From positions 2,019 to 66,018 of the forward strand of contig JBBDKG010000010.1 of the NCBI GenBank assembly GCA_040879435.1: a stretch of DNA of 64,000 bases. Direction: 5' to 3'. Each line of letters begins with the position of its first letter. The stretch's first letter is position 1. The notes beneath the pieces were generated by a model. It did not search any database and was not told the origin of the DNA. It was given only the letters and a program-made list of their open reading frames with translations. This document shows, piece after piece, positions 26,114 to 44,999 of the stretch. The position numbers and the translations under genes were made by a program. This DNA is from Minisyncoccota bacterium. Its GTDB lineage: Bacteria > Patescibacteriota > Minisyncoccia > Phycocordibacterales > UBA918.

Positions 26114-27172
26114 CTATTCCGTAGCGGGTGGCGGAGCAGGTTCTTCATCTTCCGGTTCTTCCGGCGGTGGAGGCGATGTCTCCTCTTCTGGTTCCTCTGG
26201 TGGAGGTTCAGGTTCCGCCGCCGCTTCGACCACGACCGTCCGCGTCTTCGTCGCTTCATTGCCTGCTGCGTCTGCGACGCTGTATGTGAGTGTGTATGTA
26301 CCTGCTGTATCGGTATCCACCGTGCCATTTATCGTGATCTGAGCTGTCAGATCGCCATCTTTAGTGTCTGTTGCTGCAGCGCCCGGTTCGTCGTAGGTAT
26401 CGCCTTCAGTGAGAGTTATGGTTGCATCTCCGGCAAGTGTGATCACTGGTGGCGTGGTATCAGCTTGCGGTGTGCTGCCACCGCCCCCACCGCTTGGCGT
26501 GGTGCTTGCTGTAGTGGTCGCGGTGCTGCTTGCGGTCGAGCCACCATCCGATGTTGACGTTGCGGTTGACGTACCGGTCACACCTCCTGAACCGCTGCCT
26601 GAAGATGTCGAGGTGCCGGTCGCAACAGGAGTATTCTTTGACTCCTCTTCATACACGACCTCATCGGGATCAAGGAATCGGCCCACAAGACCGGAGTATG
26701 TTCGCTCAACGATCTTGTTGTTCGCGCCAATACGTCGTTCGATCTCCTGGGTCTCGATGAGCATCTGTCGCTCGGCGTTCACCACTTCCGCAAGCTGTGT
26801 GGTGATGAACGTATCAAGGTCCTTGGTACCAAGCTGCGATTTTGAGACCACCAGTATCTCCTCTCGCACGGCCTCCTGCCACACACCATCGATGACTGCA
26901 TAGGTCTGGTATGAGTAGTGTACGAAGTAGCTGATATCATCTTCTTCAACATACTCAACCTGTACCCGAAAGTCGTGATTATGAATATCGGCCTCAAGGA
27001 TCGCGCGGTTACTCACCTGCCGAACCGTCTCCTCCGACGTGATCACTGCTCCAGCCATTGCATCCCGCACATCCTCATTCGAGGCCATGACCGTCCCGCC
27101 GGACAGGAGAAGGAACACGAAGAGGAGTGTGAACGTGTTGTTATACAGTATGTAGTGGGCAAGTCTTTGCAT
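26114..27172 (-). CDS. secreted surface protein: N-terminal domain, S/T/G-rich linker, bacterial Ig-like (DUF5011/Big-like) domain, Pro/Glu-rich tail
   Basis: Signal/TM at the N-terminus. A long TSTSSGSGSGGVTGTSTATS linker. PVITLAGDATITLTEGDTYDEPGAAATD...GTYTLTYSVADAAGNEATKTRTVVV is a classic Ig-like adhesin repeat. C-terminal PEPPPEEPEEE tail. Confidence 0.65.
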   Translation of the reverse strand: MQRLAHYILYNNTFTLLFVFLLLSGGTVMASNEDVRDAMAGAVITSEETVRQVSNRAILEADIHNHDFRVQVEYVEEDDISYFVHYSYQTYAVIDGVWQEAVREEILVVSKSQLGTKDLDTFITTQLAEVVNAERQMLIETQEIERRIGANNKIVERTYSGLVGRFLDPDEVVYEEESKNTPVATGTSTSSGSGSGGVTGTSTATSTSDGGSTASSTATTTASTTPSGGGGGSTPQADTTPPVITLAGDATITLTEGDTYDEPGAAATDTKDGDLTAQITINGTVDTDTAGTYTLTYSVADAAGNEATKTRTVVVEAAAEPEPPPEEPEEETSPPPPEEPEDEEPAPPPATE

Positions 27173-27231
27173 ATGGTCGCGTTACCATGATTATACCACC
27201 GGACGGAATGCGTCACGCTGCCCTGTGGGAA

Positions 27232-28446
27232 TTAGGTACCGGCCTCAGCCTCCGCTACGAATCGGCAGAACAGCTCGGGTCGCTGTCCTTTTGCACAAGC
27301 GGTCTGCAGCTCCGCCTCGCTCACAAAACGTGAAATAGACGAATACAACCCTTCGTAGCAGATCGTTTGCTCCGTCTCGGTCATTCCACTCTCTTCACAA
27401 AATGCAAATACATGTTCGAAATCACCCGATGATGTGCCGTGCTCTACAAGTCCACCCGCGAGAGAGACGATGCATGCATGGAGCAGTTCCTCGGGAACAG
27501 TCCGACACGATGCAAGCAACTGCTGCTGGTCTTCCTTCGGACGATGCTGCACCATACCGCTGACCGCAACGGTCATGATCGTACTCTGCATGTCTTTCCG
27601 TTTTGCAGTCTGTGCGATCGCGGCGGCCTTTGCCGGATCATGGTTACTCAGACCGTCCACCTTCTGCGCCATCTCGTAGTAGCAGTCCGGCTGCCGCTCA
27701 TATGCTTCGCTGTCGCAGATGCGGAATGGTGATTCACGATCATAGGTAAAGCCATACTCCTCGTCTGACATCCAATCCACGATCACGTTGTATATACCCT
27801 GCCGGCACTCGCTGATCTCGAACGGACTCGCGTCCGGTAGCGACTCACACTGCGCAAGTGGTACATCGACAAAATCTCGGAGCGTCCACTCGCGCGGGTC
27901 AACGAGCGTATCAGCACGAGCTAGTAAAAAGCCATGTCCTGAACCGTGATAGCAGGTTTGCCGCATTCCCGGTGCGGTCGCTTTCAGGCGCTCGTCCATG
28001 TATGCACAGGTCAGAGAAACAAATGCCGGGTCAGGATTGTCCTGTATCAAATGTTCAAAGAAACCGTGATAGAAACCATACCCGCACGCAGTTGCATTCG
28101 GCGGAAATTCGGTGCGGTCCAGGTCACGATGTGTGAGGTAATCAAAGTAGTACGCCATGTCCCCAACACGATGCGCGTGCCGATGGCATCCGGTGTTCGA
28201 GAACGTATCGTATTCACGGTAGATACGCTCGAACACATCAAAGGCGGCCTGCGTTCCGTCAGATACGAAGACGCCGCGGATCACCTCCTGCCAGCAATCG
28301 ATCTTAGCAACCTCGTTCGTATATACCTTCTCACACCTCTCGATAGCTGCAGTTTCGCTATCATGCACCAGAAGAGCCCCGAGGATACCGATCACGAGAA
28401 ACGCTATCAGGATCACCCACCGCACAGTAATGCTATTCAACAACAT
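27232..28446 (-). CDS. Cys/His-rich secreted protein, paralog A of a 4-member family (repeated C-x-H-G-x-G-H-G motifs)
   Basis: Probable start MLLNSITVRWVILIAF (signal anchor). The ORF-track extension upstream is Arg-rich junk. Motifs CHRHAHRVGD, CGYGFYHGFFEH and CYHGSGHGF. About 14 Cys. Confidence 0.6.
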   Translation of the reverse strand: MLLNSITVRWVILIAFLVIGILGALLVHDSETAAIERCEKVYTNEVAKIDCWQEVIRGVFVSDGTQAAFDVFERIYREYDTFSNTGCHRHAHRVGDMAYYFDYLTHRDLDRTEFPPNATACGYGFYHGFFEHLIQDNPDPAFVSLTCAYMDERLKATAPGMRQTCYHGSGHGFLLARADTLVDPREWTLRDFVDVPLAQCESLPDASPFEISECRQGIYNVIVDWMSDEEYGFTYDRESPFRICDSEAYERQPDCYYEMAQKVDGLSNHDPAKAAAIAQTAKRKDMQSTIMTVAVSGMVQHRPKEDQQQLLASCRTVPEELLHACIVSLAGGLVEHGTSSGDFEHVFAFCEESGMTETEQTICYEGLYSSISRFVSEAELQTACAKGQRPELFCRFVAEAEAGT

Positions 28447-29452
28447 GTATCGTACCGGTGAAATAAGAGCGGATATGGTCATGCATGTTCCAGGTTCCCA
28501 CGCGATCGAATGTAAAACTCCATGTTTCTTCCGGCGGAATCGGCTCAAGAGAATCGAACTCCGGATAGATCCCGTGTGTGGGATGCAGGTTCGACGCCGG
28601 CCAGAACGGCCGACCTGTGGTCGTGCTGAATTCGACCGTCGCACCGCGCGCGACGGTAAGCTTTGCAGGCTCGAACCCTTCGTCGGTCAGCACGACTGAT
28701 ACTGTACCGTCAGTAGCTATTGCCGCCTGCTCAGGCGCTGACGCATTCAGTTGGTTGTCAGACAGGAGCATGAGGGTCACATAGAAAGCGGCGGCGGCAC
28801 ACGCAAGTCCAACCGCAACGCTTACAATAAGGTTCGTTCGCGATGGGCGTTTTGGAGTCGTTTCAGATTCTTCTGTGACCGGTGCAGTGTTGCCGGACGT
28901 ATTGCGTCGTGTCCTGATGAACAGAAAAATGCCAACAAGCGAAAGCAATGCCCCCGCAACTACTCCAACACCAAGTGCAAGAAATGAAAACGTTCCTGCG
29001 CCTGAAACATCACCTTGTTGCACGGACAGTGTGAATTCGATCTCGACGAGAGCCTCCCCCTCGTTACTGAATCGTGCAAAGCCGGTATACGTCCCTGCTT
29101 CAGGGAAGGCGATGGTCATCCCGGTAGCACCGAACTCAGCCTTTGCAAGTCCTCCCGCATAGAGTAGCCGGCCATCGTCTTCAAGCCGGAACCAGATGTC
29201 TGTGAACGGTACCTGTGTATCAGTCTCAGCATCATAGAGGTAGAAGTCAAATCGTATCTGCTCACCTGAACGAGGTTCTTCGGGCGAATAGCCGATATCG
29301 ACAAGATAGCCGTCGATGGTCTGTTCGATCGATGCTCCTGACGAGTGTGCAGCTACTCGTTCAACAAACGTGGTGCTGAGAACTGCAAGCGTCACACTTG
29401 TGACGATGCCAACGGTAATAAGAAAAGCTGTACTTATTTGTGTGCGTATCAT
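28433..29452 (-). CDS. membrane-anchored two-domain protein: YtkA/CopC-like beta-sandwich N-domain + cupredoxin-like C-domain
   Basis: 339 aa. N-terminal anchor and a central TM helix. The C-terminal segment FEPAKLTVARGATVEFSTTTGRP...HPTHGIYPEF...GTWNMHDHIRSYFTGTIHV resembles cupredoxin/EfeO-type domains (His ligands present, no Cys). Confidence 0.55.
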   Translation of the reverse strand: MIRTQISTAFLITVGIVTSVTLAVLSTTFVERVAAHSSGASIEQTIDGYLVDIGYSPEEPRSGEQIRFDFYLYDAETDTQVPFTDIWFRLEDDGRLLYAGGLAKAEFGATGMTIAFPEAGTYTGFARFSNEGEALVEIEFTLSVQQGDVSGAGTFSFLALGVGVVAGALLSLVGIFLFIRTRRNTSGNTAPVTEESETTPKRPSRTNLIVSVAVGLACAAAAFYVTLMLLSDNQLNASAPEQAAIATDGTVSVVLTDEGFEPAKLTVARGATVEFSTTTGRPFWPASNLHPTHGIYPEFDSLEPIPPEETWSFTFDRVGTWNMHDHIRSYFTGTIHVVE

Positions 29453-29509
29453 GCGGGTACTCGTGAATTAGAGACTTCCAAATACAGTCATTCTGTATGG
29501 TACCACAGG

Positions 29510-30727
29510 TCATTGTCGTGGCACTTCATGCAGACACGCGGCTTTCCACGGCTCAGGTATGCCATTACAAATCTGATAAAATCCGTCGGACTCGACCGTA
29601 AATACATAGGTTGCGTACTGCAACATCTTCTCATAGCACGCTTTGTGTGAATTCGTCGCCTCCGCCGCCTCGCACACACTGAGCGCTTTTGCGATATTGC
29701 GGTTGTCAGTCTCTACTAGGCGTGCCGCCGCGTTCGCAAAGCAGATGCTCTCGTACGGCGAACGCACATTCGGACAAAATGATGTCGCCCACTCGGTGCT
29801 CAAGTTCGCGCCGGCCATCGCAAGGAAGAACACACCGGAAAGACACCGCGTATGTTGCCAATCATTGAAATCAACACGGTCACAAAGATCAACGATCGCT
29901 GATGGATCATCGAGCATCTCCGCAAACGGCGGCCAACCCTCACTGATGCACGAACCGTATTTCGCTCCTTCAAACTGCGAACAGAATGTGTTCACTTCTT
30001 CGGGCGTCTCGACCTCCTTCCCTTCGATAAGGGCGAAGTCCTCAGGCTCGAGCGGCTGGTAGATCTGCATGAACGCGCCATCATAGCAGAGCTGACGTTC
30101 CGCATCTTGGTTGTCGGGATTCCCGTCGACGAGCCGGTCACACAATTCAAGCGAATCATGAATGTCAGCGCCGGTCACATACATCGTCAAATGGCCGAGT
30201 GCGTGAATACAGGTCGCCTCGCCCATACCGGTCGGCTCCCACCCATCGCGCGCCTGACACACGCCCGCAAGTTCTCCTTCGATCTCACGTACATCACGTC
30301 CCTCCATCGAGTCCACACGGAACCGTTCCTGAAATGCTCCGTGGATCGCTCCGTTCGAACAGATACCGAGCGGTGCTTTTGCAATGACATCCTTCCACCG
30401 CTCCGGGTCTTTTGCTGTTTCCTTTGCTGAGAGTTCATGCCCGAGGACATGGCAGTACTGGTACGAAGGATCGAGGTCCTGTACGATCCGGGTGATTGAG
30501 AACGCCTCCAACATACTATATCCATTGTCCATCACCTTCGGAATCTCTTCGTCATAGCAAGATGGCCGATATGCTGCGTCAGCACAGGTCGCCACAATGC
30601 TACGCGCGACCGATTCGTGCGTGTCTGAGGTGTGGGTGAACAATGCCCCCACAAACAGAGCGAGCCCAAGCCCCGCACCGAACACGGTGACCATGAAAAT
30701 ACGGGGATGTCGTTTGAGAATACGCAT
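29510..30727 (-). CDS. Cys/His-rich secreted protein, paralog B
   Basis: 405 aa. N-terminal anchor. Motifs YCHVLGHELS, CSNGAIHGAF and CIHALGHLTMY. About 16 Cys. Confidence 0.6.
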   Translation of the reverse strand: MRILKRHPRIFMVTVFGAGLGLALFVGALFTHTSDTHESVARSIVATCADAAYRPSCYDEEIPKVMDNGYSMLEAFSITRIVQDLDPSYQYCHVLGHELSAKETAKDPERWKDVIAKAPLGICSNGAIHGAFQERFRVDSMEGRDVREIEGELAGVCQARDGWEPTGMGEATCIHALGHLTMYVTGADIHDSLELCDRLVDGNPDNQDAERQLCYDGAFMQIYQPLEPEDFALIEGKEVETPEEVNTFCSQFEGAKYGSCISEGWPPFAEMLDDPSAIVDLCDRVDFNDWQHTRCLSGVFFLAMAGANLSTEWATSFCPNVRSPYESICFANAAARLVETDNRNIAKALSVCEAAEATNSHKACYEKMLQYATYVFTVESDGFYQICNGIPEPWKAACLHEVPRQ

Positions 30728-30776
30728 GAGAAACGTGTGTGAGAGTATCGTACCATGTGGCCATTCGGCCGGTAGT

Positions 30777-31784
30777 TTAGATGAGATCGTGACTCATAAG
30801 GCAGCGTCTATGGTATTCACCATCGAGCGAGTCACACAAACGCTCCCATTCGTCTTTGAACGCCGGTTGATTCGACACAATCCATACCGCACCTTCGATA
30901 CAGAGCATTTCACCTTCACGATCGGGCATAGTGCCGCATGCAGCAAGCATTTCGTCGACATCATACTCCTGTAGCCCGGCGATCACGTTCCCGGCACCGC
31001 GATAACAGGCCTCCCTGCCCTTTTGGTCCTCGATTTCGCTGCACAAATCGCCAACAGCAGCGTAGTCCTGCCCGTTGAGCGCACTCCACCATGCAGGCTG
31101 TTCAAAGTAGCAGGCTTCGATGTATCGGTCGTCGACCTCCGTACACGGGTGGTGCATACCCCACTCACCAGGTTGACGCATGTCCGCCTGCTGCATGGTC
31201 GCAAAGTTGTATTCCATAAAGACACCGCTCGTACAGCCGCCGATCGGACCCTGCCAATTGAGTCGCATGCACGCCTCAAGCGACTTGTTCAGCTCGTCGT
31301 ACCCGAGTTCAGCAATGACACCATGACCGATCCCGTGCTGACACCCAAGCCCTTTTGGTCCATACGCATCAATGCACGCCTGATCGAGTTCGCTGAGAAT
31401 GGAAAGTCCGTTCTCGATGAGCGCCCGTCCGAAAAAGCTGTGGTAGCAGCCGAACCCATAGCCACTATCGCAAACTGCAACACCCGGTATCCCTTCCGTT
31501 TTGTACAGAGCCTCACCGAAAACGTGCGCATAACTATGCTGCTGTACCTCGCTTAGATGCGAATACACTTCACCAAACCACATATACGCCTTCCGTCCGC
31601 CTTTTTCCGCAACAGCAGCCGCCCAGAACGCTGCAACTTCGGGATCCTCCGCCGGAAGCTCTTTTATTGCCGCTGCTCTGGCCTCGGTCGCTTCGGCAGT
31701 GGCTCCTCGTTCAAGCACCGTCGCACCGATGACGCCTATGGCGACACACGCGAGTATGATACTAATGCGTTGGTACTGTTTCAT
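30777..31784 (-). CDS. Cys/His-rich secreted protein, paralog C
   Basis: 335 aa. N-terminal anchor. Motifs GCYHSFFGRAL, GCQHGIGHGVIAE and GCTSGVFMEY. About 16 Cys. Confidence 0.6.
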   Translation of the reverse strand: MKQYQRISIILACVAIGVIGATVLERGATAEATEARAAAIKELPAEDPEVAAFWAAAVAEKGGRKAYMWFGEVYSHLSEVQQHSYAHVFGEALYKTEGIPGVAVCDSGYGFGCYHSFFGRALIENGLSILSELDQACIDAYGPKGLGCQHGIGHGVIAELGYDELNKSLEACMRLNWQGPIGGCTSGVFMEYNFATMQQADMRQPGEWGMHHPCTEVDDRYIEACYFEQPAWWSALNGQDYAAVGDLCSEIEDQKGREACYRGAGNVIAGLQEYDVDEMLAACGTMPDREGEMLCIEGAVWIVSNQPAFKDEWERLCDSLDGEYHRRCLMSHDLI

Positions 31785-33022
31785 ACGCCGAGAACGTCAG
31801 TGCACTCTGGCTGCCATGAATCCGGAAGCGCAGCACAGAACGACGAACGGTACGCCGGATCGGGGTTATAGTTCATGACATTTCTAATTCCGGTACGATA
31901 GCAGTCGTCGACAAGTGCAGCATCATTGACGAGTGCACAGTAGTTAACAACAGCCTCATACGGTTTTTCTCCACCCCAATACAGTGAGTCCACGGTCGAC
32001 GAGACGCAGTGCGCACGACCGTCCTCCGGTTCGGCCAGAAGACACCACTCATACATGGTCTCCAGATGGTCATCGCGCGGAACTTCCGCCACAAAGTCGC
32101 GACCGGTCGCTATGCCGATGAATTCTTTTCCGAGTCCTCCAAAGCACGCCCATCGGTTCCCGGTCTCTTCCATAGGTATCTCGTCACAAAGCTCAAACGT
32201 CTTCTCGAACACATCAGGTGACGGACGTGCCATATCCGCCCCGAACGCTTCGAACGCGAACGGTGTCATGTATATGTAGCAGATCTGACGGAAGTTCTCA
32301 GGCACGATGTCGTCGGTGCAAAGCCCGAACGGATCGTCGGTCTTTAGATACTCATCGCGGCGGAGACGCCAGTTCTCCGGGTCATGCCCACCCCCGCCGA
32401 TGATCTCCATGATCGCGCCGCCGAAACACTCTACCGCCTCCTGCTGCTGAAACTCGTCGGTACCGAACTTTCCGCACATTGCGATCGTACGGTCCATTTC
32501 ATACGCGTTGTATGCAAGCACTCCGTGTCCAAGTCCATGGAAACACATTGTATATGCACCGTCCCCGCCCGGGGCGTTGTGGCAGGCTTCACGAATTTTG
32601 GACAGTGCTCCCTCGCCGAACTCGAGGAGTGCACCGATCACCATCGTATGCGAACACGCGTTGCGGAAGTCATGTGTGCAGTGCGCCATGCCATCAATTC
32701 CCTCTTGTTCATACATGATCTCTCCCACTTCATGCCCAAGGAGATGCTGGTCGAGTCCGAACGGGAACGGCGCTACCTTCATGAGGCTGAATGCATACAC
32801 TCCACCCTTCTCGGCTGCGATACCTTTGAAGAGCTCAATGAATTCATTGAATGGCGCTTGCTGGTCGGTGAGTGATGCGACCTGTTCTATGTCGCTTTCG
32901 GATACCGTGCCGGGTATGGACGCCATTCCTGATATCGAATCAAAAATGAGTACCGTTGCAAGAACGACCACAAGTACCAATAGACCGCCGACCGCATACT
33001 TCATACTGACACAGTCTACCAA
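31781..33022 (-). CDS. Cys/His-rich secreted protein, paralog D
   Basis: 413 aa. N-terminal anchor. Motifs HLLGHEVGE, CFHGLGHGVLAYN and ECFGGAIMEI. 4-nt overlap with paralog C. Confidence 0.6.
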   Translation of the reverse strand: MVDCVSMKYAVGGLLVLVVVLATVLIFDSISGMASIPGTVSESDIEQVASLTDQQAPFNEFIELFKGIAAEKGGVYAFSLMKVAPFPFGLDQHLLGHEVGEIMYEQEGIDGMAHCTHDFRNACSHTMVIGALLEFGEGALSKIREACHNAPGGDGAYTMCFHGLGHGVLAYNAYEMDRTIAMCGKFGTDEFQQQEAVECFGGAIMEIIGGGGHDPENWRLRRDEYLKTDDPFGLCTDDIVPENFRQICYIYMTPFAFEAFGADMARPSPDVFEKTFELCDEIPMEETGNRWACFGGLGKEFIGIATGRDFVAEVPRDDHLETMYEWCLLAEPEDGRAHCVSSTVDSLYWGGEKPYEAVVNYCALVNDAALVDDCYRTGIRNVMNYNPDPAYRSSFCAALPDSWQPECTDVLGV

Positions 33023-33142
33023 GCATCAGGAGTCCTGTCGCACGCACATATAAACCCGGATGTCTTGAGATATCACCTCCCTCATGCTACTGTTGCCGCG
33101 GACATTCTGTCCTTTCAACACTGTCTGAGAAGGAAAAGGACG

Positions 33143-34429
33143 ATGAGAACAACTCTCCTCGCCTGTGCGGCAAGCACCGCACTACTGTGGGTGGCGCCGG
33201 CATACGCTGCTTTCGAACATTGTGACACCGTCGAGGAACTCACACTCGATTCATGGCGCTGCGGCGACAAGATGGTGCCACTGTGCCTTGCGCTGATGCC
33301 GTCGGAGAATCCGGATGACCCGGACAACCCAGGCCCAAGCCTCTTCGAACAACACTGTGTGGACGTACATCTGCGCATCCACAAGAGCGCCGAGACGCTC
33401 CGTACGGACTTCTACCGCGAACCGGAAGTGCCGATCGATGGTTCGACGACGTTCGAGGCGGCGCTCGCACTTCCTTCTGACGTCAAGTGGTCGATTGTCG
33501 GCGCGTTCGCCGGCAACAACCAGATGTTGGTCGGCACGGTCGAACCAAAGGACTTTCTCGGCAACATCTTCGGAACGGGGCGCTGCCCCGATACGGACGA
33601 ACGAGTCGTCGGCGGCGCCATCCATGACTGGCGGAATATCACTGACCCGGAGAAGGTCACGTACACACAGACCTCGAAGTCGGGAAACACGATCCAGACG
33701 ATCAGCCAGCTTCGCGAATGGAAACGCACAGGCGTACTCCCCGCGGATACGGCTATCGTCTGCGGTGCCCGATTCTCGGTTCCGGGAAACGAATACCGTC
33801 CGTCCGGCGAAGGCATCGGTGAGCATTACGTGCTCATCGAGGAAGAAAACAAGCGACTTACGGCCGGACGTGTCGATATGCTACGCCAGGGGAAATACCA
33901 GGGCGCAAGCATTGTCGCCGAATACTACTTCAATATCCGGCGGCAGATCCCCAACCTGCGTGTCTACGATGTCGGCATCGGTCCGGATTCGTTCGTCTCT
34001 GCGGGCTTGTTCGTGAAGAACGAAAAGCTCGACGAGAAGCACGAGGCATTTTGCCGGTTCAATCAGGCGATTCAGAAAGCGCTCGACCAGCTCTTTGCTG
34101 GTTCGGTGACCAAGGTCGGTGACAGCTACGTGCTGGACGATGCTGCCGCGGCCGGAGCGTTCCATGATTTCATGCGCGTCCTTCCGTTCGAGAGCACTGA
34201 CATCGCTCTCACCAACTCACTCAAGGGAGCGCTGGAGATCCGGAGCCAGTCCACGGACATCGATCACTACCAGACCTTCCGTGCACGCCTCGATTTCTTG
34301 GGGTTCGCTCGAGAGAATCTCTGGTGGGGTACGAAACCGACCGAGGTGCAGCTTCAGACCTTTAGGGACTGGTTCGATGTCCCCGATGTCGGGTACATCG
34401 ACCCGTGCACCTACGAACCGAAGGCGTGA
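33143..34429 (+). CDS. ABC transporter substrate-binding protein (NMT1/SsuA/TauA-like)
   Basis: Start at the ATG at 33143 preceded by AGGAAAAGGA. Signal peptide MRTTLLACAASTALLWVAPAYAA. Periplasmic-binding-protein fold inferred from overall sequence character. Confidence 0.55.
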   Translation: MRTTLLACAASTALLWVAPAYAAFEHCDTVEELTLDSWRCGDKMVPLCLALMPSENPDDPDNPGPSLFEQHCVDVHLRIHKSAETLRTDFYREPEVPIDGSTTFEAALALPSDVKWSIVGAFAGNNQMLVGTVEPKDFLGNIFGTGRCPDTDERVVGGAIHDWRNITDPEKVTYTQTSKSGNTIQTISQLREWKRTGVLPADTAIVCGARFSVPGNEYRPSGEGIGEHYVLIEEENKRLTAGRVDMLRQGKYQGASIVAEYYFNIRRQIPNLRVYDVGIGPDSFVSAGLFVKNEKLDEKHEAFCRFNQAIQKALDQLFAGSVTKVGDSYVLDDAAAAGAFHDFMRVLPFESTDIALTNSLKGALEIRSQSTDIDHYQTFRARLDFLGFARENLWWGTKPTEVQLQTFRDWFDVPDVGYIDPCTYEPKA

Positions 34430-34530
34430 TGCGCCGAGCGGGCAAGCGAAAACTTGCCCGCTTTTTTCTTGCACCGATTCGTGTATAGTTGAGTCAGATA
34501 CGGTCATTCTGGACAGAAAGGAGAAGGCCC

Positions 34531-35391
34531 ATGTGGGAACGGAATGCCTCAAAGTTCATGACAGGTGGAGACTCACGCTGGCGTACTGTTGCGGTCGTGT
34601 CCATCCTCATGGTGGGCATCCCGTTACTACTCGTTGAATACTGGGCACACACCGTGTCTGGATTTGCAGCACGCTACTCGCACCCAAGCGCAGTATTCTG
34701 GATACTGGTGAATGATTTCCACCTTATCTGGCCCCGCTTTACAGCCACTGCGTGGCGCGGGATGGTGGGCATTTTGGCCGCAGGCCTTATTGCTTATCCG
34801 CTCGGCGTACTGTTCATATGCATCGGTCCGCTGACGAGATTCTTTTTTCTTGTCACACTCGCGCTCCTTGTAATGCCAAAGCTCAATGTAGCGCTGGTGG
34901 CCCAGTGGACGTACGGATACGGCGAAACGTCGATGTATATCATATCTTTCTGGATCGGCTGCGTCTTTATGTTCGCCAGTGGATTTCTTGGCGCACTCCT
35001 TCTCCATACGTTTCAGCGTGTAGAGAAGGATGCTGATTCGATCTTCCAGGCATCTGCGCTTGATGGCACACGATTCTGGGCACATTACCGTATGGCCATG
35101 CAGATGCTGCGGGCACATCACGTCAGTTCCCTCCAGATTCTGGCTATGGCGATCTGGACCTCTCTCACTTTCTCCGAGGCGATCTCAAGCGTGATCGGAC
35201 TTGGCGAACGTATGCATGACAAGGTCCGCCTTGAAAGCACTATCGGCTACGCTTGGGCGATGTCATTCCTGATCATTCTTCTCGAAGTAGCATCGTTTAT
35301 CGCGATCGCATACATCGGATACCTAGCAAACGTGCGGGTACCGATTATACCGGCTCGCACGAACGACCGAACTCCACCTTCCGCAGAGTAA
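34531..35391 (+). CDS. ABC transporter permease (binding-protein-dependent inner-membrane component)
   Basis: AAGGAGAAGG Shine-Dalgarno before the ATG at 34531. Six hydrophobic segments and an EAA-like loop (FQASALDGTRFWAHYRMAMQML). No ATPase gene adjacent in the window. Confidence 0.6.
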   Translation: MWERNASKFMTGGDSRWRTVAVVSILMVGIPLLLVEYWAHTVSGFAARYSHPSAVFWILVNDFHLIWPRFTATAWRGMVGILAAGLIAYPLGVLFICIGPLTRFFFLVTLALLVMPKLNVALVAQWTYGYGETSMYIISFWIGCVFMFASGFLGALLLHTFQRVEKDADSIFQASALDGTRFWAHYRMAMQMLRAHHVSSLQILAMAIWTSLTFSEAISSVIGLGERMHDKVRLESTIGYAWAMSFLIILLEVASFIAIAYIGYLANVRVPIIPARTNDRTPPSAE

Positions 35392-35406: not shown

Positions 35407-36666
35407 TTATTTACCACCACGCTCCTCGATAAATCGGATACGCTTACGTCCTTCACGACTGAGAGTCCTGACCGATCGACACTGCATCGCCGGTACGAGA
35501 CCGCGCGAAACAGCGTCGGCGTACGTCCGGTCTGGTGAGATGCGCACCGCTTGCATGAATGCATCAATAAATGACCGCTCATCAAACGGACCGCGTGGTA
35601 ACACCCACAGTTCTGCTTGCATTGGTACAGTATCGGTCACCGGTGTGTAGTGAAGTTCAAAATCAGGCATAACAAGATCATGAAACGTACCGATCGCACG
35701 TTCGAACTCAGACGCCTGTAACTGTCCGCCTGGTATTCTGATCCGGTCAAGCTCCCGGCGTCCACGCGTTGCATACCGCCGCTGCCACGGGTCCTCGTGA
35801 TAGGTCGTGTACATAGCAAGGTCACCCATTCTATATCGGAGGAGAGGCGATGGATTATTCTCAGTCCACATCATGGTGACGACGACCTCTCCCTCCTTCC
35901 CGGTCTCTTCGATGACCGTACCTGTGTCGGGATCGATCAGTTCCATGTACAGATGTTCAGATGTTGAGAATATCGTACCTAGCTCCATATCAAATTCATC
36001 GACCGAGTATCCAAGCCGTGTTTCGTGGATCTCGGTCGCCCCGTACAGCGTATACACGAGCGCACCTGGAAATGCTGTTTTCAACTTTACATACTGTGCC
36101 GGTGTCACCCGTTCACCGAACGTGTACACGACCGCGACACCCTCACGGAGTCCGTACCGGTCGAGCTGCTGAATGAACATATCGTACGCAAACAACCAAC
36201 AGCCGACCACATTGATCGGCAAGCCTTCAGCCAATCGCACCGCCGCTCCCACCGCATGCAAGTCTCCTCCAATAAAGGGAATGTTCGGATATTTGAGACG
36301 AAAACCGTTCTCGACCGCATAACTAATGTCTCCAAGACTGAGTACACCTGTGGGCTGTATGCGTTCGAATAACTCATCATATCGCCAGGTGAAGTTCCGC
36401 AATGTCATTAACACCTCACCGCCCGAGGTACCTGACGATGTGCGGATCATGTCGGCGTTCGAAAGGTCGGTGAAGGTTCGTTCGAGTAACGGTACCTGCT
36501 GAAGATCAGCCTTGGTGACGAACGGAAGCGAACGCCAGGCATCCAAAGTATCGACATGGAAGTCAGGTCGCACGCGGTCACCATAGAGGTCACGATAAAA
36601 ACTCGCACGGTCGTTGTGGTATGCGTATTGAAACATCGCATCAAGTTTTGAAAGGTAGTTCAGCAT
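35407..36666 (-). CDS. adenylate-forming enzyme of the PaaK/CapK/coenzyme F390 synthetase family, copy 1
   Basis: 419 aa. AMP-binding motif IRTSSGTSGGEVLM, and YGATE and later conserved blocks of phenylacetate-CoA-ligase-like enzymes. Confidence 0.7.
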   Translation of the reverse strand: MLNYLSKLDAMFQYAYHNDRASFYRDLYGDRVRPDFHVDTLDAWRSLPFVTKADLQQVPLLERTFTDLSNADMIRTSSGTSGGEVLMTLRNFTWRYDELFERIQPTGVLSLGDISYAVENGFRLKYPNIPFIGGDLHAVGAAVRLAEGLPINVVGCWLFAYDMFIQQLDRYGLREGVAVVYTFGERVTPAQYVKLKTAFPGALVYTLYGATEIHETRLGYSVDEFDMELGTIFSTSEHLYMELIDPDTGTVIEETGKEGEVVVTMMWTENNPSPLLRYRMGDLAMYTTYHEDPWQRRYATRGRRELDRIRIPGGQLQASEFERAIGTFHDLVMPDFELHYTPVTDTVPMQAELWVLPRGPFDERSFIDAFMQAVRISPDRTYADAVSRGLVPAMQCRSVRTLSREGRKRIRFIEERGGK

Positions 36667-37478
36667 GGCGTTATGGTATATGCCTTCTGTTGGCTGATCG
36701 TTTCAGTCGGTGCGCATGAGAACGGGAGCCGATACCTACACAATGGCAATACTGACTCATCAACACCGGTGATAAACGTACCATCCTCATTGAACTCCCA
36801 AAGATAGCGACGATCGAGGTGGAACGTGTCCGTCGACCCGAGAAGTGGAAAGGACTGGTATGCAATGACATGCCCCGGAAACAGATGTATCTCAAGTGTG
36901 GTGTTCGCATTAGGTACCGTGCACGACGCGAGATCGATCGGCAACTCATCAACACCAGCAAACGCAACGACAGTCTTGATAATGTCAGTGACGCCACGGC
37001 GCTGAAGTTCATTTTGTAGCGCCGCAACATCAGCTATATGCGCGACCAGAAATGTTGGCTGCGCTTGTCGGACGATCTCAGCTGCAAGCGGCGTGTTGGT
37101 AAATGATTCGCGCGTCACAAAGAGACCATGTCGTCGTGCCTGCAGGTGGAACGGGTACACGAATTGCCACAGACCGGGTGCAAACAACATCACACCACCG
37201 TGTGGTTTATAAAAGCGGTATTGCTCATCAAGCGATCGCCACTGCGGGAATTGGTACTGCGGGATCGGATCAGACAAATCATCATCGTTCCGGATGAATC
37301 GTGACGGAATACGGTTGATGATCGTCCGTTTCAATCGTTGCGCTTCCGCTACGATACGCTGGCTACACGTATCAGGCGTGTCGAGTTCCAATGCGGTCAG
37401 ATCATGGGTGCCATATCGATCATCGAGTACACGTTCGAGGTCTGGCAACGTTGCAGGATACAGTGATTCAGCATGCAT
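36660..37478 (-). CDS. hypothetical protein, translationally coupled partner of adenylating enzyme copy 1
   Basis: 272 aa. Its last codons overlap the downstream enzyme start by 7 nt. No recognisable motif. Confidence 0.5.
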   Translation of the reverse strand: MHAESLYPATLPDLERVLDDRYGTHDLTALELDTPDTCSQRIVAEAQRLKRTIINRIPSRFIRNDDDLSDPIPQYQFPQWRSLDEQYRFYKPHGGVMLFAPGLWQFVYPFHLQARRHGLFVTRESFTNTPLAAEIVRQAQPTFLVAHIADVAALQNELQRRGVTDIIKTVVAFAGVDELPIDLASCTVPNANTTLEIHLFPGHVIAYQSFPLLGSTDTFHLDRRYLWEFNEDGTFITGVDESVLPLCRYRLPFSCAPTETISQQKAYTITPC

Positions 37479-37483
37479 ACACT

Positions 37484-39103
37484 CTACTCTACCGTATAAA
37501 CATCAGCGGACAATGATTTCTGTTCGAGAATAAAAGACGCGAGCGTTTCGATAGGGACTGTGGCCTGGAGTGCCCCCCGATACAACACGAGACCGCTCGC
37601 CGGATCAAGCTCCCCCGCTCGTTCCCGAAGGAAACGGACCGGCTCAGTGTATAGGGTGGCATTGGCAGCAAGAAAGAGTGAGGTGTAGTAGCTACGGGTG
37701 AAGAGCAGTGATTCGATGGGTATCTCCATAACCTCAAAGACATATCGACTGGTCGCCGCCATATCATCGATCCTGCTTATTTCCGTCTCAAACCATGCGC
37801 TTTGCGCCCGCCAGAGCGTCACCATATCGATCAGGCGGTAAACGGTCGCCTCATCCAGGACCCCTGCCGGGTCGTCGGTGGTATTGAGAAATGCAGTGAC
37901 GTGCCCTATATACGCATCGTAGTCTGCCGCATTGAGCACACTGTCTTCCAGACGGATCTTTTGTTCATACGTGCGAGCTTGCGCAAGCGGCTCGGGAAGC
38001 TCCACAACATCATACGATGTGAGGAGTGGTTCAGAGTGAAGTGTCTCAAACATCCACTGCACTGTTCGTACTGTACCGGAATCAAGTCCGTAGTCGATGC
38101 AAAGGTATGGATTCATCTGCTGGTAGACGTACGTGGCCCCGGTCCTGGCAAGTGCAGTTTCGAACGGAGAGGTCTGTTGCGCCGTATCATGAAAAAGAAT
38201 CTCACTGACGGGAGTGAGCCAGAAGACCGGACGACCGCTATATCGTGACGACCGCCAAAAATAGAGATAGGTTGCTGACTGATCGACCGTGCATTCGGCT
38301 TCCGGTATATACACAAGTGGCAACGTATGTGGGTCACGGTCGAGATATGCAACTGGAGCGAACGGACCGGCGTCCACCATCACGGCGCGCAACGCCTCAG
38401 TTCGTTGAGATAGATCTTCCGCCGGTCGCGTCGCACGCACACTATTCTGATTTGTATACAGTGGAATAGCCGCGTCACACGCGCCACGTTCTGCGGCTGG
38501 GAGCAGGCACCGAAGACGCTGCATACTCTGTGCCAGCAGATCATCTGCACGAACATAGATATCTGCTAATGTCCCGGCGATGTACTCAAGCGATGTCGCC
38601 CCGGCCGGTGTGCTCAATTCAATGTCGGGAGCCTCGGTATACATAGCGTCTGAGAGTATCCGAGCGTCACTGCGCAGGAATGCAAGACTGCGCGCAAGCA
38701 GTACATGGTACCGAATTGCTCTCCAGTAACTCGGCTTCGCAATGAACACTCGCCTGGCGTCCTCGAGCTCAGGCAACGAAGTGAGAAACGCCATTGGATA
38801 CAACGCAGCATCAATGATCTCCTGTTCATGTTCGGCATACCGTCCCGTATATACATCGCGACTTTCTGCGAGCGCCTCGAGTGACCGTTCAAGTTCAGTC
38901 ACATTCGTTTCGGGGAGTGCAAGGATCGGGTCATACAGAGTTGTACGCCACACTGCATGTAGCCGCACAGGCACACTCCCGTCACTGTTGTCGAGATGCG
39001 GTTCGTACACGCGTGTAGCTAGAACAAACAATGTGACCGCAATACCGACCATCAATACAGCGAAGAGCGTGTAGCGGATGTTTCTCATATCACTGACGTT
39101 CAT
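37484..39103 (-). CDS. large membrane-anchored extracytoplasmic protein L1, unknown function
   Basis: Preferred start MNVSDMRNIRYTLFAVLMVGIAVTLFV (signal anchor). The ORF-track extension to 39295 overlaps the upstream gene and is Arg/Ser-rich junk. Confidence 0.55.
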   Translation of the reverse strand: MNVSDMRNIRYTLFAVLMVGIAVTLFVLATRVYEPHLDNSDGSVPVRLHAVWRTTLYDPILALPETNVTELERSLEALAESRDVYTGRYAEHEQEIIDAALYPMAFLTSLPELEDARRVFIAKPSYWRAIRYHVLLARSLAFLRSDARILSDAMYTEAPDIELSTPAGATSLEYIAGTLADIYVRADDLLAQSMQRLRCLLPAAERGACDAAIPLYTNQNSVRATRPAEDLSQRTEALRAVMVDAGPFAPVAYLDRDPHTLPLVYIPEAECTVDQSATYLYFWRSSRYSGRPVFWLTPVSEILFHDTAQQTSPFETALARTGATYVYQQMNPYLCIDYGLDSGTVRTVQWMFETLHSEPLLTSYDVVELPEPLAQARTYEQKIRLEDSVLNAADYDAYIGHVTAFLNTTDDPAGVLDEATVYRLIDMVTLWRAQSAWFETEISRIDDMAATSRYVFEVMEIPIESLLFTRSYYTSLFLAANATLYTEPVRFLRERAGELDPASGLVLYRGALQATVPIETLASFILEQKSLSADVYTVE

Positions 39104-40724
39104 GGTATGAAATAAATTCTTTGACGAGTTCCGTAAATGAAGTCTCCTCAATGACCGACGAGAGGTATACGTACGGGGTCTCTGCCCGCGGCAGCGAGAA
39201 CGGTTCGTGAACGTCACCGGGAGATACAGAAGCAAAGAGGAGCAGCCCGAACGGTACAAAGGCACTTCGGGAAAAATAGATGCGGTCGATCTCAACTGCG
39301 GGTATCACACCCGCATCAAGTGACGTGGCATTCGCTGCTTCAGAGACTGCGATACTAAATATCAACAGTCCTCCACCCTCGGTAAGCCGGTCAAATCGTA
39401 GTGCAAAATCTGCAAGCGCGGCATGGTGTTCTTGTGGAATCTCTCCTGTCCCCACATATCGCAGTGCGGTCTCTATATATGCACGTGCACGATCCTCCGC
39501 TACCGCTTCGGCTGTGATTGATTCAAGGGAACGAAGCGATTCGTAGTCAGTTGTCTCTTCAAGATATCCACTCAACTGATGCTCGAGAGCATACTGACGC
39601 ACATCCCGCGTGGTAAGGGCTGCACCAATATCACGCGAAGCGGCGGCGCATGCATAGTGCGAGAACGGCGATGCCGGCACGTACGTGTACCCACGGCCAT
39701 AGAAATAGCGATAGAACGGCACCTCCAGAAAGTCTTCAACACGGATCATCCTCACATCCGACCCCTCCTGTATGAGTGGGTGTGACCGGCTAGGAGATTC
39801 AACAACAACACGCGGGTCGACCTCAGGATTCAGGCACCAACTCCGTTCGAGCGTCACGTGTATGCGTTCATGATCACGACCTGTTTCGGTATCGATCATT
39901 TGATACAACCGTCCAACGTCCTGATACGTTGTATTAGCATTGGATACGGTCTCCGTATCTGACCATACGACCGGATATCGCAGCGCTGTCGCATCACACG
40001 GGGCAAACACGTCTGTCACGCAGCGGGTAAACGAGACGACATGTTGGCCAGCCGACCTGCTGGCGCCACGCAGCAGTTGCAACGTATCAAGTGTATTTTC
40101 CTTTGTGATGCTGTGCCGTTCGGTGACAACACGGATCGTGTCGTATCGGACAAACCAGCGGTACGCAGCTTCATACAAGATCGACTCACGTTGGTACGTG
40201 GCATCAAGACGCGATGCTGCATGAAGATAATCGGTCAGATGGTCCATTGTACTCTCTTCAAGAAACAGGCGACGTGCCTTTTCCGCTGCTCCTGCAGCGC
40301 GTAGCGTATCGCTCGGAAACAATGTATGTCGGACAAGAACCTTGCCGACTATTCCCGGTTCATATTCCGATAGTCGCTCCTGCACATCCTGTAACTGATT
40401 GGCTCCTTGCTCCAGATACTCTATATCGATTCCAGGAAGTGCAATCGATGGATTCACCCGAAGAACACGTTTTGCATACGCAAGCCGTAAGATCGTCATC
40501 TGGTCAGAGCGGCTAAGCGTTGTATCCGTGACAACGACCCCGCCGCGTACCTCGTACAATCGGTTCTGATATGCCACTGTTTCATACACACCCGCATCGT
40601 GGAGCATGTATGAAAATTGCTCAATAGAGCGCTGCTGCACAGCGATACCAAGGCCCCCCACAATAACGGCAAGTACAAGGCCGGTCGCAAACGTGCGTTT
40701 CGAATTTCCAAGAAAAGGCGCCAT
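39090..40724 (-). CDS. large membrane-anchored extracytoplasmic protein L2, unknown function
   Basis: 544 aa. N-terminal anchor MAPFLGNSKRTFATGLVLAVIVGGLGIAV, then a soluble domain. Confidence 0.55.
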   Translation of the reverse strand: MAPFLGNSKRTFATGLVLAVIVGGLGIAVQQRSIEQFSYMLHDAGVYETVAYQNRLYEVRGGVVVTDTTLSRSDQMTILRLAYAKRVLRVNPSIALPGIDIEYLEQGANQLQDVQERLSEYEPGIVGKVLVRHTLFPSDTLRAAGAAEKARRLFLEESTMDHLTDYLHAASRLDATYQRESILYEAAYRWFVRYDTIRVVTERHSITKENTLDTLQLLRGASRSAGQHVVSFTRCVTDVFAPCDATALRYPVVWSDTETVSNANTTYQDVGRLYQMIDTETGRDHERIHVTLERSWCLNPEVDPRVVVESPSRSHPLIQEGSDVRMIRVEDFLEVPFYRYFYGRGYTYVPASPFSHYACAAASRDIGAALTTRDVRQYALEHQLSGYLEETTDYESLRSLESITAEAVAEDRARAYIETALRYVGTGEIPQEHHAALADFALRFDRLTEGGGLLIFSIAVSEAANATSLDAGVIPAVEIDRIYFSRSAFVPFGLLLFASVSPGDVHEPFSLPRAETPYVYLSSVIEETSFTELVKEFISYHERQ

Positions 40725-40789
40725 ATCTGTTGATCGTAAGGCCGGTATACTGGCGGCAAAAGCGACTCTGCTATACTACCCAAACCAGT

Positions 40790-41896
40790 ATGGAAAAGAA
40801 AGACGATCTGCGGCCTCGGTTCCTGACCCTCCTCGAAGACATGTTTGCCCATCCTCCGAATGCTCGTGAGGTAAAACAATATCGCTTTATGCATACATCG
40901 GGAACCACCGGTATCCCGCTCCCCGTTGTTTGTACCGGTCGGCGAGACTGCAATCCGGCATTTTTAGGGCGTGGTACACGCACGCTCATGCTCTTCGGAT
41001 CGAAACCGCTTCGTCTCGATTTTGCACGCACGTTCGCTGACCCGGATACGCCCAAAAGCGACATCATGTTCTGTTCGCTCACTACGTCAGCACAAGAAAA
41101 CGAACGCATATGGCGTGAGTGGCGTCCGGACGCGATCGCCAGTCCTCCATCAGTTCTACTGCGATTTACACGCGCTTGGCCTGAAAACGCACGCGCGCAG
41201 GTTACCAGCGTCATTCTCGCTGGAGAGTTTGTGAGTAAGGTGGTGAGTGACATTATTCACGAGAGATTCCAGCATGCACGTATTGAGAACTACTACCCAG
41301 CGACTGAGACCGGACTCATTGGTACCCAGTGCTCCTTGTGCGCATGGAATGAATTCCATCCGGTCGACGGCGTTACGTTTTCCATACACGAACCGGACGC
41401 AGACGGACGTGGCGACCTTCTGCTCAGCAAGGAAAACCCGGGTGGCATTGCTTTCACCGACTACCGTGTCGGAGATGTTGCGAGCGAATCAAATCACAAT
41501 GGACACCGCGTCATCGTACTATACGGTAGACGGGGGTTTGACTACATCAAGCTTGCTGAGGCATTGCTGGTCAGAGAGGAGTTTGATCGTGTTGCAATGG
41601 AGCTCGAGCGCTATATCGACGACTACCGTGCCGAACTCACGACCCGTATCGAAGACGGTGTACCAAAGCATCACCTCACACTCCAGGTCATCGCAACGCC
41701 TGATGCCACACGAACAGGGCAAGCCCTTGCGGATCATCTCGCTGCCGAAGTGTCGTCCCGGCTTTTTGTCACACCACACTCCACGCTCAAGGATGCTGTG
41801 GAAAACGAAATATTTGCACCGCTCACCGTCTTGCTCGTAGATACGATCACACATACGACAGCGAAACCGCAGCGTCTGATTCGTGTGGACGCTTAG
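40790..41896 (+). CDS. adenylate-forming enzyme of the PaaK/CapK/F390 synthetase family, copy 2
   Basis: Preferred start MEKKDDLRP. AMP-binding motif FMHTSGTTGIPLPVV and a YYPATETG block. About 370 aa. Confidence 0.65.
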   Translation: MEKKDDLRPRFLTLLEDMFAHPPNAREVKQYRFMHTSGTTGIPLPVVCTGRRDCNPAFLGRGTRTLMLFGSKPLRLDFARTFADPDTPKSDIMFCSLTTSAQENERIWREWRPDAIASPPSVLLRFTRAWPENARAQVTSVILAGEFVSKVVSDIIHERFQHARIENYYPATETGLIGTQCSLCAWNEFHPVDGVTFSIHEPDADGRGDLLLSKENPGGIAFTDYRVGDVASESNHNGHRVIVLYGRRGFDYIKLAEALLVREEFDRVAMELERYIDDYRAELTTRIEDGVPKHHLTLQVIATPDATRTGQALADHLAAEVSSRLFVTPHSTLKDAVENEIFAPLTVLLVDTITHTTAKPQRLIRVDA

Positions 41897-42915: not shown

Positions 42916-43430
42916 CTACCGATCAAACTGCGCAAGCAGTCCTGCCCATACGTCCTTCACGTACCCAACTATCCGCTCCCAGTACGAGACGATGCGATAT
43001 TTGAACGTGTCGGTGTACCCTTCAAACAAGTATTCTCCCTTCTCCACCAACGCATCAGGACCTTTCTCCACCTCGACCTCGATGGGGTTCGCGAGAATGT
43101 ATGGGTCGTGGCGGATGCCGGTGACCTGCCAGGAGACCTTTGCAGAAGGTGGGCCGCCGGCGATGGTGAAGCGGTTGTTCTCGATCTCTTCTTTTATATG
43201 TATATCAGGGGCAGGTGCGGTGATCCCTTTCACCTGATACCGGTAGTCTGTGTTCAGTGCTTCAAAATAACGCGGTAGCGTTACAACCGCCTCTCCCTGT
43301 GCGTTCAGAGTGACAACCCCGTCATACATGTTCTTCACATCCGGTGACTCGACGAACGAGTGATACAGGAGTTTGTTCTCCGGATCGAGTGGGTGGTCGA
43401 TGACGAATGAACCAGAGCCTTTTGAGAGTG
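42916..43430 (-). repeat. copy 1 of a ~400-500-bp near-identical dispersed/tandem repeat (the shared C-terminal-domain coding segment)
   Basis: For example, the 43031-43190 block ctccaccaacgcatcagg(a/g)cctttctccacctcgacctcgatggggttcgcgagaatgtatgggtcgtggcggatgccggtgacctgccaggagacctttgcagaaggtgggccgccggcgatggtgaagcggttgtt is repeated with 0-1 mismatches at 43623 and 44425. Boundaries approximate. Confidence 0.8.
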
Positions 43431-43584
43431 CACCGATAACGGACGCTTGATCAGCGATGCTGACCGCTCCGGAGAATGTTACCTGCGCGAGCGCACGCCC
43501 CCAGGCTGGACCAAACGCAATGATGGCCAATGCCCCCACGAGGAGTACCGAATATATGCTGTTTCGTAGCAGGTGTGTGTTCAT
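42916..43584 (-). CDS. secreted protein P1 with conserved ~170-aa C-terminal domain (FVIDHPLDPENKLLYHSFVESPDVKN...) shared with P2 and P3
   Basis: 222 aa. Signal peptide, then the shared domain. The shared region is nearly identical at the nucleotide level to the two upstream genes. Confidence 0.65.
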   Translation of the reverse strand: MNTHLLRNSIYSVLLVGALAIIAFGPAWGRALAQVTFSGAVSIADQASVIGALSKGSGSFVIDHPLDPENKLLYHSFVESPDVKNMYDGVVTLNAQGEAVVTLPRYFEALNTDYRYQVKGITAPAPDIHIKEEIENNRFTIAGGPPSAKVSWQVTGIRHDPYILANPIEVEVEKGPDALVEKGEYLFEGYTDTFKYRIVSYWERIVGYVKDVWAGLLAQFDR

Positions 43585-43587
43585 ACG

Positions 43588-44060
43588 CTATTCACTATCC
43601 TCTTCATACCCCTCATGGATATATTCTCCCTGCTCCACCAACGCATCAGGGCCTTTCTCCACCTCGACCTCGATGGGGTTCGCGAGAATGTATGGGTCGT
43701 GGCGGATGCCGGTGACCTGCCAGGAGACCTTTGCAGAAGGTGGGCCGCCGGCGATGGTGAAGCGGTTGTTCTCGATCTCCTCCTTTATATACAGGTCCGG
43801 CGCCGGTTCATCGAGCGCAGTGTATTGGTATCGGTAGTCACTGTTCAGTGCTTCAAAATACTCCGGCAGATCGACCACCGCCTCCCCGTTCTCGTTAAGT
43901 GTGGTCACGCCATCATAGATGTTCTTCACATCCGGTGACTCGACGAACGAGTGATACAGAAGCTTGTTCTCCGGATCGAGTGGGTGGTCGATGACGAATG
44001 AACCAGAGCCTTTGGAGATGCTGTTCGTGACCGCAAGGTTTGAGTTCATGGTCACGCTCC
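43588..44060 (-). repeat. copy 2 of the near-identical repeat
   Basis: See copy 1. Boundaries approximate. Confidence 0.8.
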
Positions 44061-44870: not shown

Positions 44871-44995
44871 GACACCTGTGCAAAGGTGGCGAGCGGGTGA
44901 TACAACGTCGCGAGTGCCGTTGCACACACAACACCCGCGCAAAACGCCAGAAGGCGATGTCGAGGGATACGTAGTTGTTGCAGGTTGGTGATCAT
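44381..44995 (-). CDS. secreted protein P3 with the conserved C-terminal domain
   Basis: Preferred start MITNLQQLRIPRHRLLAFCAGVV at 44995, 5 nt after the stop of the giant upstream gene. Same C-terminal domain as P1 and P2. Confidence 0.65.
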   Translation of the reverse strand: MITNLQQLRIPRHRLLAFCAGVVCATALATLYHPLATFAQVSISGSADFLQNLSVVGSLSKGSGTFVIDHPLDPENKLLYHSFVESPDVKNIYDGVATLNENGEAVVTLPDYFEALNDRENVRFLLTPIGEPGPTLHVRGGVENNRFTIAGGPPSAKVSWQVTGIRHDPYILANPIEVEVEKGPDALVEQGEYIHEGYYDDTNE

Positions 44996-44999
44996 ATCC

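Follow-up and report, generated by a model that had tools for sequence, protein, structure and literature searches.

The nearest known architecture to the proteins discussed here is that of EfeO, in which an N-terminal cupredoxin ('Cup') precedes a helical metal-binding domain of the M75 type at the C-terminus; FtrB ('Cup-II') is a cupredoxin without cysteine that binds Cu(II) via Asp and His and oxidises Fe(II) (PMC11966278). The nearest known scaffold logic is that of the Helicobacter cysteine-rich proteins (Hcp; Sel1-like), which are secreted alpha/alpha repeats of ~35 residues with one disulfide staple each and an expansion into paralogues. Here we analysed a 64,000-nucleotide stretch of a Minisyncoccota bacterium (contig JBBDKG010000010.1; hereafter the window), in which 27232-33022 on the minus strand encodes four tandem cysteine- and histidine-rich proteins, A to D, and a cupredoxin-like protein, X, a group that a preceding sequence-only reading had singled out as a candidate extracytoplasmic metal-binding family.

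We propose that A-D and X constitute an extracytoplasmic, membrane-anchored metal module, most probably for copper, and that their genes, in the order D, C, B, X, A, form together with the following gene for an Ig-like protein one co-directional surface operon conserved in Paceibacterota and related Patescibacteria; this is our best explanation of the locus, which we hold tentatively, at somewhat less than an even chance for the reading as a whole. According to this model, A-D would be type II anchored ectodomains of about seven repeats of a short helix and a long helix, with a disulfide brace in each repeat that links the short helix, at its end, with the long helix at its second turn, and five histidines carried by the first three long helices at their N-termini would form, with a usual methionine on the fourth, one metal site, most probably occupied by copper. 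Two partners would accompany them, namely (i) a cupredoxin-fold domain with a His/Asp set, encoded next to the A-type paralogue or as part of the same chain, and (ii) a small anchored beta-sandwich with an invariant histidine at its mature N-terminus, a feature of CopC and YcnI-type Cu(II) binders. The paralogues would probably make up a hetero-assembly that captures, relays or redox-cycles metal outside the membrane, given that one-to-one orthology is kept and that elsewhere one chain can combine D with C or the cupredoxin with A, and the module may capture, relay or store the metal or use it in redox chemistry. Four features make copper the likeliest metal in our judgement: one partner domain has a cupredoxin fold, the other would begin with a histidine, the ligands are soft, and the window encodes a YcnJ-like CopC-CopD protein. 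We infer from the patterns described below that a metal is bound and which one it is, that the cysteines form disulfides, how the histidines are arranged in the site and that the proteins assemble into a complex. The features concerned are as follows (aa, amino acids; all on the minus strand).

31781..33022, minus strand: paralogue D, 413 aa, called as an open reading frame (ORF), family hidden Markov model (HMM) E 3e-88; N-terminal anchor and helical-repeat ectodomain with 16 cysteines; histidines His93/His97/His125/His162/His166.
30777..31784, minus strand: paralogue C, 335 aa, the minimal member; helical repeats with 7 Cys pairs; codons of His83/His87 at 31524-31538, His115 at 31440-31442, His150/His154 at 31323-31337 and Met190 at 31215-31217.
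29510..30727, minus strand: paralogue B, 405 aa, 18 cysteines; His93/His97/His129/His175/His179.
28433..29452, minus strand: gene X, 339 aa, between B and A.
29018..29347, minus strand: Xn domain of X, aa 36-145.
28439..28705, minus strand: Xc domain of X, aa 250-338.
27232..28446, minus strand: paralogue A, 404 aa, 16 cysteines; His88/His92/His127/His167/His171.
26114..27172, minus strand: Ig-like surface protein, 3' of A, with a Bact_surface_Ig-like domain (Pfam E 2e-26).

The putative metal site emerges from conservation among 395 family members, given here in the numbering of paralogue C. His83, His87, His115, His150 and His154 occur at frequencies of 0.98, 0.96, 0.98, 0.96 and 0.96, Gly153 at 1.00 and Met190 at 0.71, and no Asp or Glu column reaches 60%. 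The complete set HHHHH (HxxxH, H, HxxxH) is present in 374 of the 395 (95%), and the exceptions change several histidines together, as in H-D-H-R-N. All four paralogues in the window retain the five histidines, with the methionine in B, C and D and an asparagine in A. The histidines lie in the motifs HxxxH on the first long helix, C-x-H on the second and C-x-H-G-x-G-H-G on the third. The sequence-only reading had counted three copies of the last of these in each protein; a regular expression finds C-x-H-G-x-G-H once per paralogue, at residue 165 in A, 173 in B, 148 in C and 160 in D, and the remaining long helices open only with a degenerate C-x-x-G. Its upstream HxxGHE-like element survives as the conserved H-x-x-x-H, the glycine and glutamate not being conserved, and the conserved Cys/His scaffold that it described was recovered in orthologues and throughout the family, so that the outcome it had named as refuting, a lack of this conservation in orthologues, did not arise.

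Mean-field direct-coupling analysis of 736 distinct domain sequences gave an indication of how these helices pack. The top couplings include the cysteine pairs 105-113, 248-260, 283-295 and 317-328, and helix contacts join the first long helix to the second (79-110, 86-112, 94-124), the second to the third (110-147, 111-147, 118-151), the first to the third (90-151, 94-155) and the third to the fourth (153-187, 151-186), all of them in parallel register. The histidines are coupled to one another (87-154, 87-150, 87-115, 83-115 and 115-150) and Met190 is coupled with His150 and His87, couplings that describe residues retained or lost as a unit and not distances. Taken together, coevolution and helix register place His83/87, His115 and His150/154 next to each other at the N-termini of three helices that all touch one another. 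The five histidines and the frequent methionine are our proposal for the metal site, on this deduced geometry, and from general coordination chemistry a set of His and Met ligands, in which carboxylates are lacking and glycines keep the helix face clear, would suit copper, zinc or nickel better than Fe(III).

The sequence-only reading had left open whether the scaffold was a metal site or a set of disulfides; the cysteines behave as disulfide pairs, and the candidate metal site falls to the histidines and methionine. Total cysteine counts in A, B, C and D are 16, 18, 15 and 17 and, beyond the anchor, 16, 18, 14 and 16, all even; the sequence-only reading had counted 14-16 in each. The pairs recur with a period of ~35 residues and a spacing of 11-13 residues, candidate bonds by comparison with the one disulfide per alpha/alpha repeat of ~36 residues in Sel1-like proteins. 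In each pair one cysteine ends a short helix and its partner lies in the second turn of the long helix that follows. Cys137, Cys148, Cys172, Cys184, Cys214 and Cys225 are each present in at least 394 of the 395 members. Pair 248/260 is complete in 288 members, missing in 106 and single in 1, with corresponding numbers of 385, 10 and 0 for pair 283/295 and 271, 110 and 14 for pair 317/328; an even cysteine count is found in 372 of the 395. DsbA-like genes occur in 7 loci, adjacent to the array in 6, and no VKOR or DsbA gene is present within the 64-kb window. In one relative (P0259, locus L079 2117-3457) a VKOR membrane domain replaces the signal anchor of a C-type domain. The paired gain and loss, the extracytoplasmic domain, the DsbA-like neighbours and the VKOR fusion point to the cysteines being disulfide staples, and probably not metal ligands.

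Gene X encodes, in order, a signal peptide, the beta-sandwich Xn, two membrane helices and the cupredoxin-like Xc, an architecture common to 19 homologues, and its predicted model (predicted local distance difference test, pLDDT, 79) shows sandwiches at 40-145 and 250-338 and helices at 154-185 and 205-233. Given the signal peptide and the two membrane helices between Xn and Xc, both sandwiches are predicted to face outward. In Xn, His36 is invariant and directly follows the signal-peptide alanine, and would thus be the mature N-terminal residue, and Glu43, Asp52 and Trp87 are conserved in >90% of sequences. The description of X as YtkA/CopC-like plus cupredoxin-like in the sequence-only reading was right about the cupredoxin fold at the C-terminus, but Xn matched no YtkA, CopC (PF04234) or DUF1775 profile at E<=1, and any likeness to CopC is at fold level only.

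Xc is a cupredoxin by both fold and sequence homology, contains no cysteine and has invariant His290, His293, His324, Asp325 and His326. In an alignment with amicyanin the first copper ligand is retained (amicyanin His53, X His290), whereas Asp325 stands where amicyanin has Cys92, Ala where it has His95 and a hydrophobic residue (Leu in the profile consensus) where it has Met98, which leaves only the first His of the type 1 His-Cys-His-Met set aligned; new invariant histidines stand at +3 of the first ligand (His293) and on either side of the Asp (His324, His326). As the type 1 Cys, loop His and Met ligands are replaced, Xc is not a blue-copper protein, nor can it be one of the usual blue-copper electron carriers. 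'Cupredoxins' of the Candidate Phyla Radiation (CPR) have been proposed as electron donors to NirK (PMC5581439), and, judged from the sequence, the missing type 1 ligands speak against such a role for proteins of the Xc kind. A second, more divergent small cupredoxin-like protein (L014 6149-6661, with 23 relatives in 19 loci; Cupredoxin_1, E 0.002) has a cysteine ('YGCDAS') and recurs within or just upstream of arrays.

The sequence-only reading had associated the cupredoxin with the family by its position, and the association goes well beyond adjacency. We compared 78 loci, 77 from a scan of one genome per GTDB species and one, L001, from a metagenome run, each of at most 17 kb. An Xc-type domain is found in 59 of them, Xn in 29 and either in 62, and among loci of at least 15 kb Xc or Xn is present in 39 of 44. 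Fusion is the strongest pointer to function: 80 of the 125 Xc domains share an ORF with a helical domain, in the order anchor, cupredoxin, helical domain; the ORFs shown have ~475-535 aa and the joining segment contains no membrane helix in the sequences inspected. Database searches returned dozens of further fusions, some annotated as 'plastocyanin' or 'cupredoxin domain-containing protein'. Outside the cupredoxin part, A is the best match for 8 of 10 fusions examined, and A is the paralogue whose gene overlaps the end of X in the window. In addition, P0197 unites domains of the D and C types in a single chain and looks like a genuine fusion, as no hydrophobic segment lies between them. These single-chain fusions speak for Xc and A, and likewise D and C, working as pairs, and more generally for joint action of the paralogues. 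In another protein (P0303, locus L080 184-1815) a CE4 polysaccharide deacetylase precedes a C-type domain.

The second copper cluster suggested earlier at 58014-62246 was found to contain a CopC-CopD type protein at 58014-60716 (minus strand). This protein has 900 aa and the architecture of the Bacillus subtilis copper importer YcnJ: its signal peptide is cleaved before a histidine ('AFA|HATP') and is followed by a CopC domain (E 9e-21), a long membrane region of many helices and, at the C-terminus, a His-rich domain that gives a weak YtkA-like match (E 0.019). To the extent that its sequence can tell, the organism has copper-handling genes.

The four minus-strand ORFs lie exactly where the sequence-only reading had drawn them, and each product has the expected signal anchor, a basic N-terminal segment followed by a single hydrophobic helix. 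Their paralogy, also claimed there, is far beyond chance, with E values of 1e-72 to 1e-93 against the family HMM, to which no other protein of the window scored, and pairwise BLAST values of 1e-18 for C-D, 1e-8 for A-C and 1e-5 for B-C; identity among the four is ~20-27%. The gene order in L001, D-C-B-X-A-Ig, is the same as in the window. One-to-one orthologues there are 48-55% identical (D 55%, B 55%) whereas paralogues stay near 25%, so that A-D are true but ancient duplicates, each copy of which has been retained.

A profile search of 1.84 billion representative proteins returned 7,508 clusters (counted at 50% identity) at E<=1e-3 and 6,132 at E<=1e-10, the helical domain being repeated up to 11 times in some of these proteins. 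The giant proteins P0195 (3580 aa), P0196 (2143 aa) and P0198 (1727 aa) carry 5-11 copies, in P0198 with hydrophobic, signal-peptide-like linkers between them; since such linkers persist, some of these chains may be polyproteins or gene-calling run-ons and not true multi-domain proteins. The 77 loci of the genome scan come nearly all from metagenome-assembled genomes of Patescibacteria/Paceibacterota, among them Kaiser-, Taylor-, Colwell-, Yanofsky- and Doudnabacteria and Spechtbacterales. The titles of L023, L026, L029, L031, L041, L052 and others name Gammaproteobacteria, Verrucomicrobiia, Acidimicrobiales or Nanoarchaeia, but their arrays are typical of Paceibacterota, and the titles are probably automated binning or taxonomy labels and not true outside occurrences. 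Altogether the 78 loci hold 407 members, with a mean of 5.2 and a maximum of 12 per locus, in same-strand tandem arrays (397 of the 407 on the majority strand of their own locus). In the complete 721-kb genome CP174359, ten members and their partner genes extend over ~14 kb, or ~2% of the chromosome.

As the sequence-only reading had surmised, the family carries no name. Neither single proteins nor profiles of A-D matched Pfam-A, NCBIfam or PDB sequences, the best Pfam-A/NCBIfam scores (E 0.045-0.12, 12.9-14.4 bits against a 27-bit cut-off) all belonging to unrelated domains of unknown function. Among 20 multi-domain relatives scanned, 10 had no Pfam match at all and the rest matched only cupredoxin, deacetylase or VKOR models, the helical domain itself being matched by no Pfam model in any of them. 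Literature searches found no published description of the family. The AlphaFold2 model of paralogue C, which is 100% identical to NCBI protein WDZ93_01495, has a pLDDT of 95.4 and is all-helical with 16 helices, and a fold search with it against the PDB found no close solved fold.

The window is a chromosomal segment of a Candidatus Paceibacterota metagenome-assembled genome, with housekeeping genes (GyrA, S1, IF-2, FtsA, FtsZ) around the array. Across 26114-33022 six co-directional genes follow one another on the minus strand with intergenic gaps of at most 59 nucleotides (nt); the stop of D overlaps the start of C by 4 nt, and the last 14 nt of X overlap the start of A, an internal ATG at 28446 that agrees with a 402-aa orthologue in L001. 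A consensus scan found no terminator-like site in any gap between the six genes, and 2 promoter-like sites against 5.8 expected by chance, a number that makes the promoter and terminator scans uninformative. The short or overlapping junctions, the single strand, the gaps free of terminator-like sites and the same order in L001 argue for a single operon. The Ig-like protein that ends it is anchored, has a Ser/Thr/Gly/Pro-rich linker and is syntenic with the array, its position being equally filled in L001 and L002, and Ig-like genes flank many arrays.

The resemblance to EfeO and FtrAB raises the question of whether the module could instead serve iron uptake, with a cysteine-less cupredoxin oxidising Fe(II) via Cu(II), the helical domain holding Fe(III) and Xn taking the place of P19/FtrA. 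We consider this very unlikely, as the helical domain has no conserved acidic or Tyr-rich site and offers only His, Met, Gly and Cys, which are poor Fe(III) ligands, and matches M75/imelysin neither by sequence nor by fold; in addition, no Ftr1/EfeU permease or M75 match was obtained for representatives of the ten neighbour families that recur most often, and Xn has a single conserved His and not the His/Met copper site of P19. Alternatively, A-D might be non-catalytic surface scaffolds or adhesins, whose disulfide-braced repeats, like those of the Hcp proteins, bind host or cell-wall ligands and whose histidines are structural, for instance as a zinc clip. Such a function would fit a generic helical-repeat fold class, the large expansion in tandem arrays beside Ig-like surface proteins, the polysaccharide deacetylase fusion in one member and the life of Patescibacteria as epibionts of host microbes, as has been described (PMC12931201). 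It nevertheless seems quite unlikely to us, given that one-to-one orthology is kept with no fast diversification, that the strongest conservation is in the histidine cluster and not in a variable binding surface, that no Sel1 profile matches and that the systematic fusion to a cupredoxin fold would be hard to account for. The high and regularly spaced cysteine content, the one VKOR fusion and the DsbA-like neighbours might also suggest a thiolate copper store or a thiol-disulfide relay, in which the 14-18 cysteines, in a reduced or cycling state, take up Cu(I) as copper storage proteins do or pass on oxidising equivalents from VKOR/DsbA, but the cysteines are strictly paired and bridge helices, which makes this highly improbable.

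Several observations weigh against the copper module that we favour. The couplings between histidines derive from ~20 variant sequences and possibly reflect a common function and not contact, and ~5% of members are without the histidines. Zinc or nickel would likewise fit a histidine-only site. The cupredoxin-like domain is absent from 19 of the 78 loci, many of which are cut by contig ends, and the deacetylase fusion, although seen in one member, hints at cell-wall work. Finally, most Paceibacterota live by fermentation and few copper enzymes are known from them, which makes a need for so large a copper system hard to explain. A bolder version of the module, which we regard as unlikely, is that the five histidines, with or without the methionine, are an undescribed kind of copper centre on disulfide-stapled helical repeats that, together with the Cys-to-Asp cupredoxin and the carrier with an N-terminal His, makes up a hetero-oligomeric surface redox enzyme, for example one reducing oxygen or reactive oxygen species or oxidising a metal, as a core, lineage-defining feature of Paceibacterota.

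Patescibacteria (CPR) represent a large share of bacterial diversity, and most of their conserved surface proteins are without known function. If copper were confirmed, the family would provide a new protein scaffold for this metal, the CPR 'cupredoxins' read as NirK donors would need re-interpretation, and an extracellular metal or redox activity would be present in supposedly simple fermenters. If copper were not confirmed, the family would still be a major unexplored surface component of episymbiotic bacteria.

Other genes near the array recur with it to different degrees. Divergent to the array, 33065-34429 (plus strand) encodes a 454-aa secreted protein and 34489-35391 (plus) a 300-aa multi-helix membrane protein, both without a Pfam match and both syntenic in L001. 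They are followed by 35407-36666, 36660-37478 and 37484-39295 (minus) and 40730-41896 (plus), a group comprising two weakly AMP-binding-like proteins and proteins of 272 and 603 aa without a Pfam match; its 419-aa and 272-aa genes hold their array-side place in L001, and in at least 9 loci the end of the array is marked by a relative of the 603-aa protein on the opposite strand. A small secreted protein without a Pfam match is present as three tandem paralogues (42916-43587, 43588-44646 and 44381-45229, minus), which have in common a highly conserved C-terminal domain of ~150 aa with the motif 'GTFVIDHPLDP..K.L.HSF.ESP'. This family has 81 members in 41 loci, and in many other Paceibacterota its tandem genes lie immediately upstream of the arrays of histidine proteins; in the window the distance is 10 kb.

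Compared with known systems, the module proposed here combines familiar and unfamiliar parts. Among helical metalloproteins, LanC-like proteins, with repeated GxxG helices and a Cys2His zinc site, were rejected as relatives, as A-D have no PF05147 match and no two-layer helical barrel fold; type 3 copper proteins bind through six histidines in a four-helix bundle, whereas A-D have five on helices that coevolution places in parallel contact, and the Cys-lined four-helix bundle of the copper storage proteins (Csp) does not correspond to A-D either. Neither sequence nor fold matched A-D to tyrosinase, hemocyanin or Csp. The Sel1/Hcp proteins would share the repeat logic, but A-D show no match to the Sel1 profile (PF08238). 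EfeO shares the arrangement of cupredoxin and helical domain, but its M75 domain uses HxxE with carboxylates, in place of which we have a candidate set of five His and a Met in a helical domain unrelated in sequence and fold. Xc resembles FtrB as a cysteine-less cupredoxin with Asp/His in the C-terminal loop, yet is closer by sequence to amicyanin and plastocyanin than to the EfeO/FtrB cupredoxins, and Xn resembles CopC and YcnI-type Cu(II) binders in its mature N-terminal His on a small beta-sandwich, but lacks the D-x-H site of CopC, His36 being its sole conserved His. The helical domain is thus a new family with a new type of candidate site, and its partners are divergent members of known copper-protein folds with a putative role in the same module.

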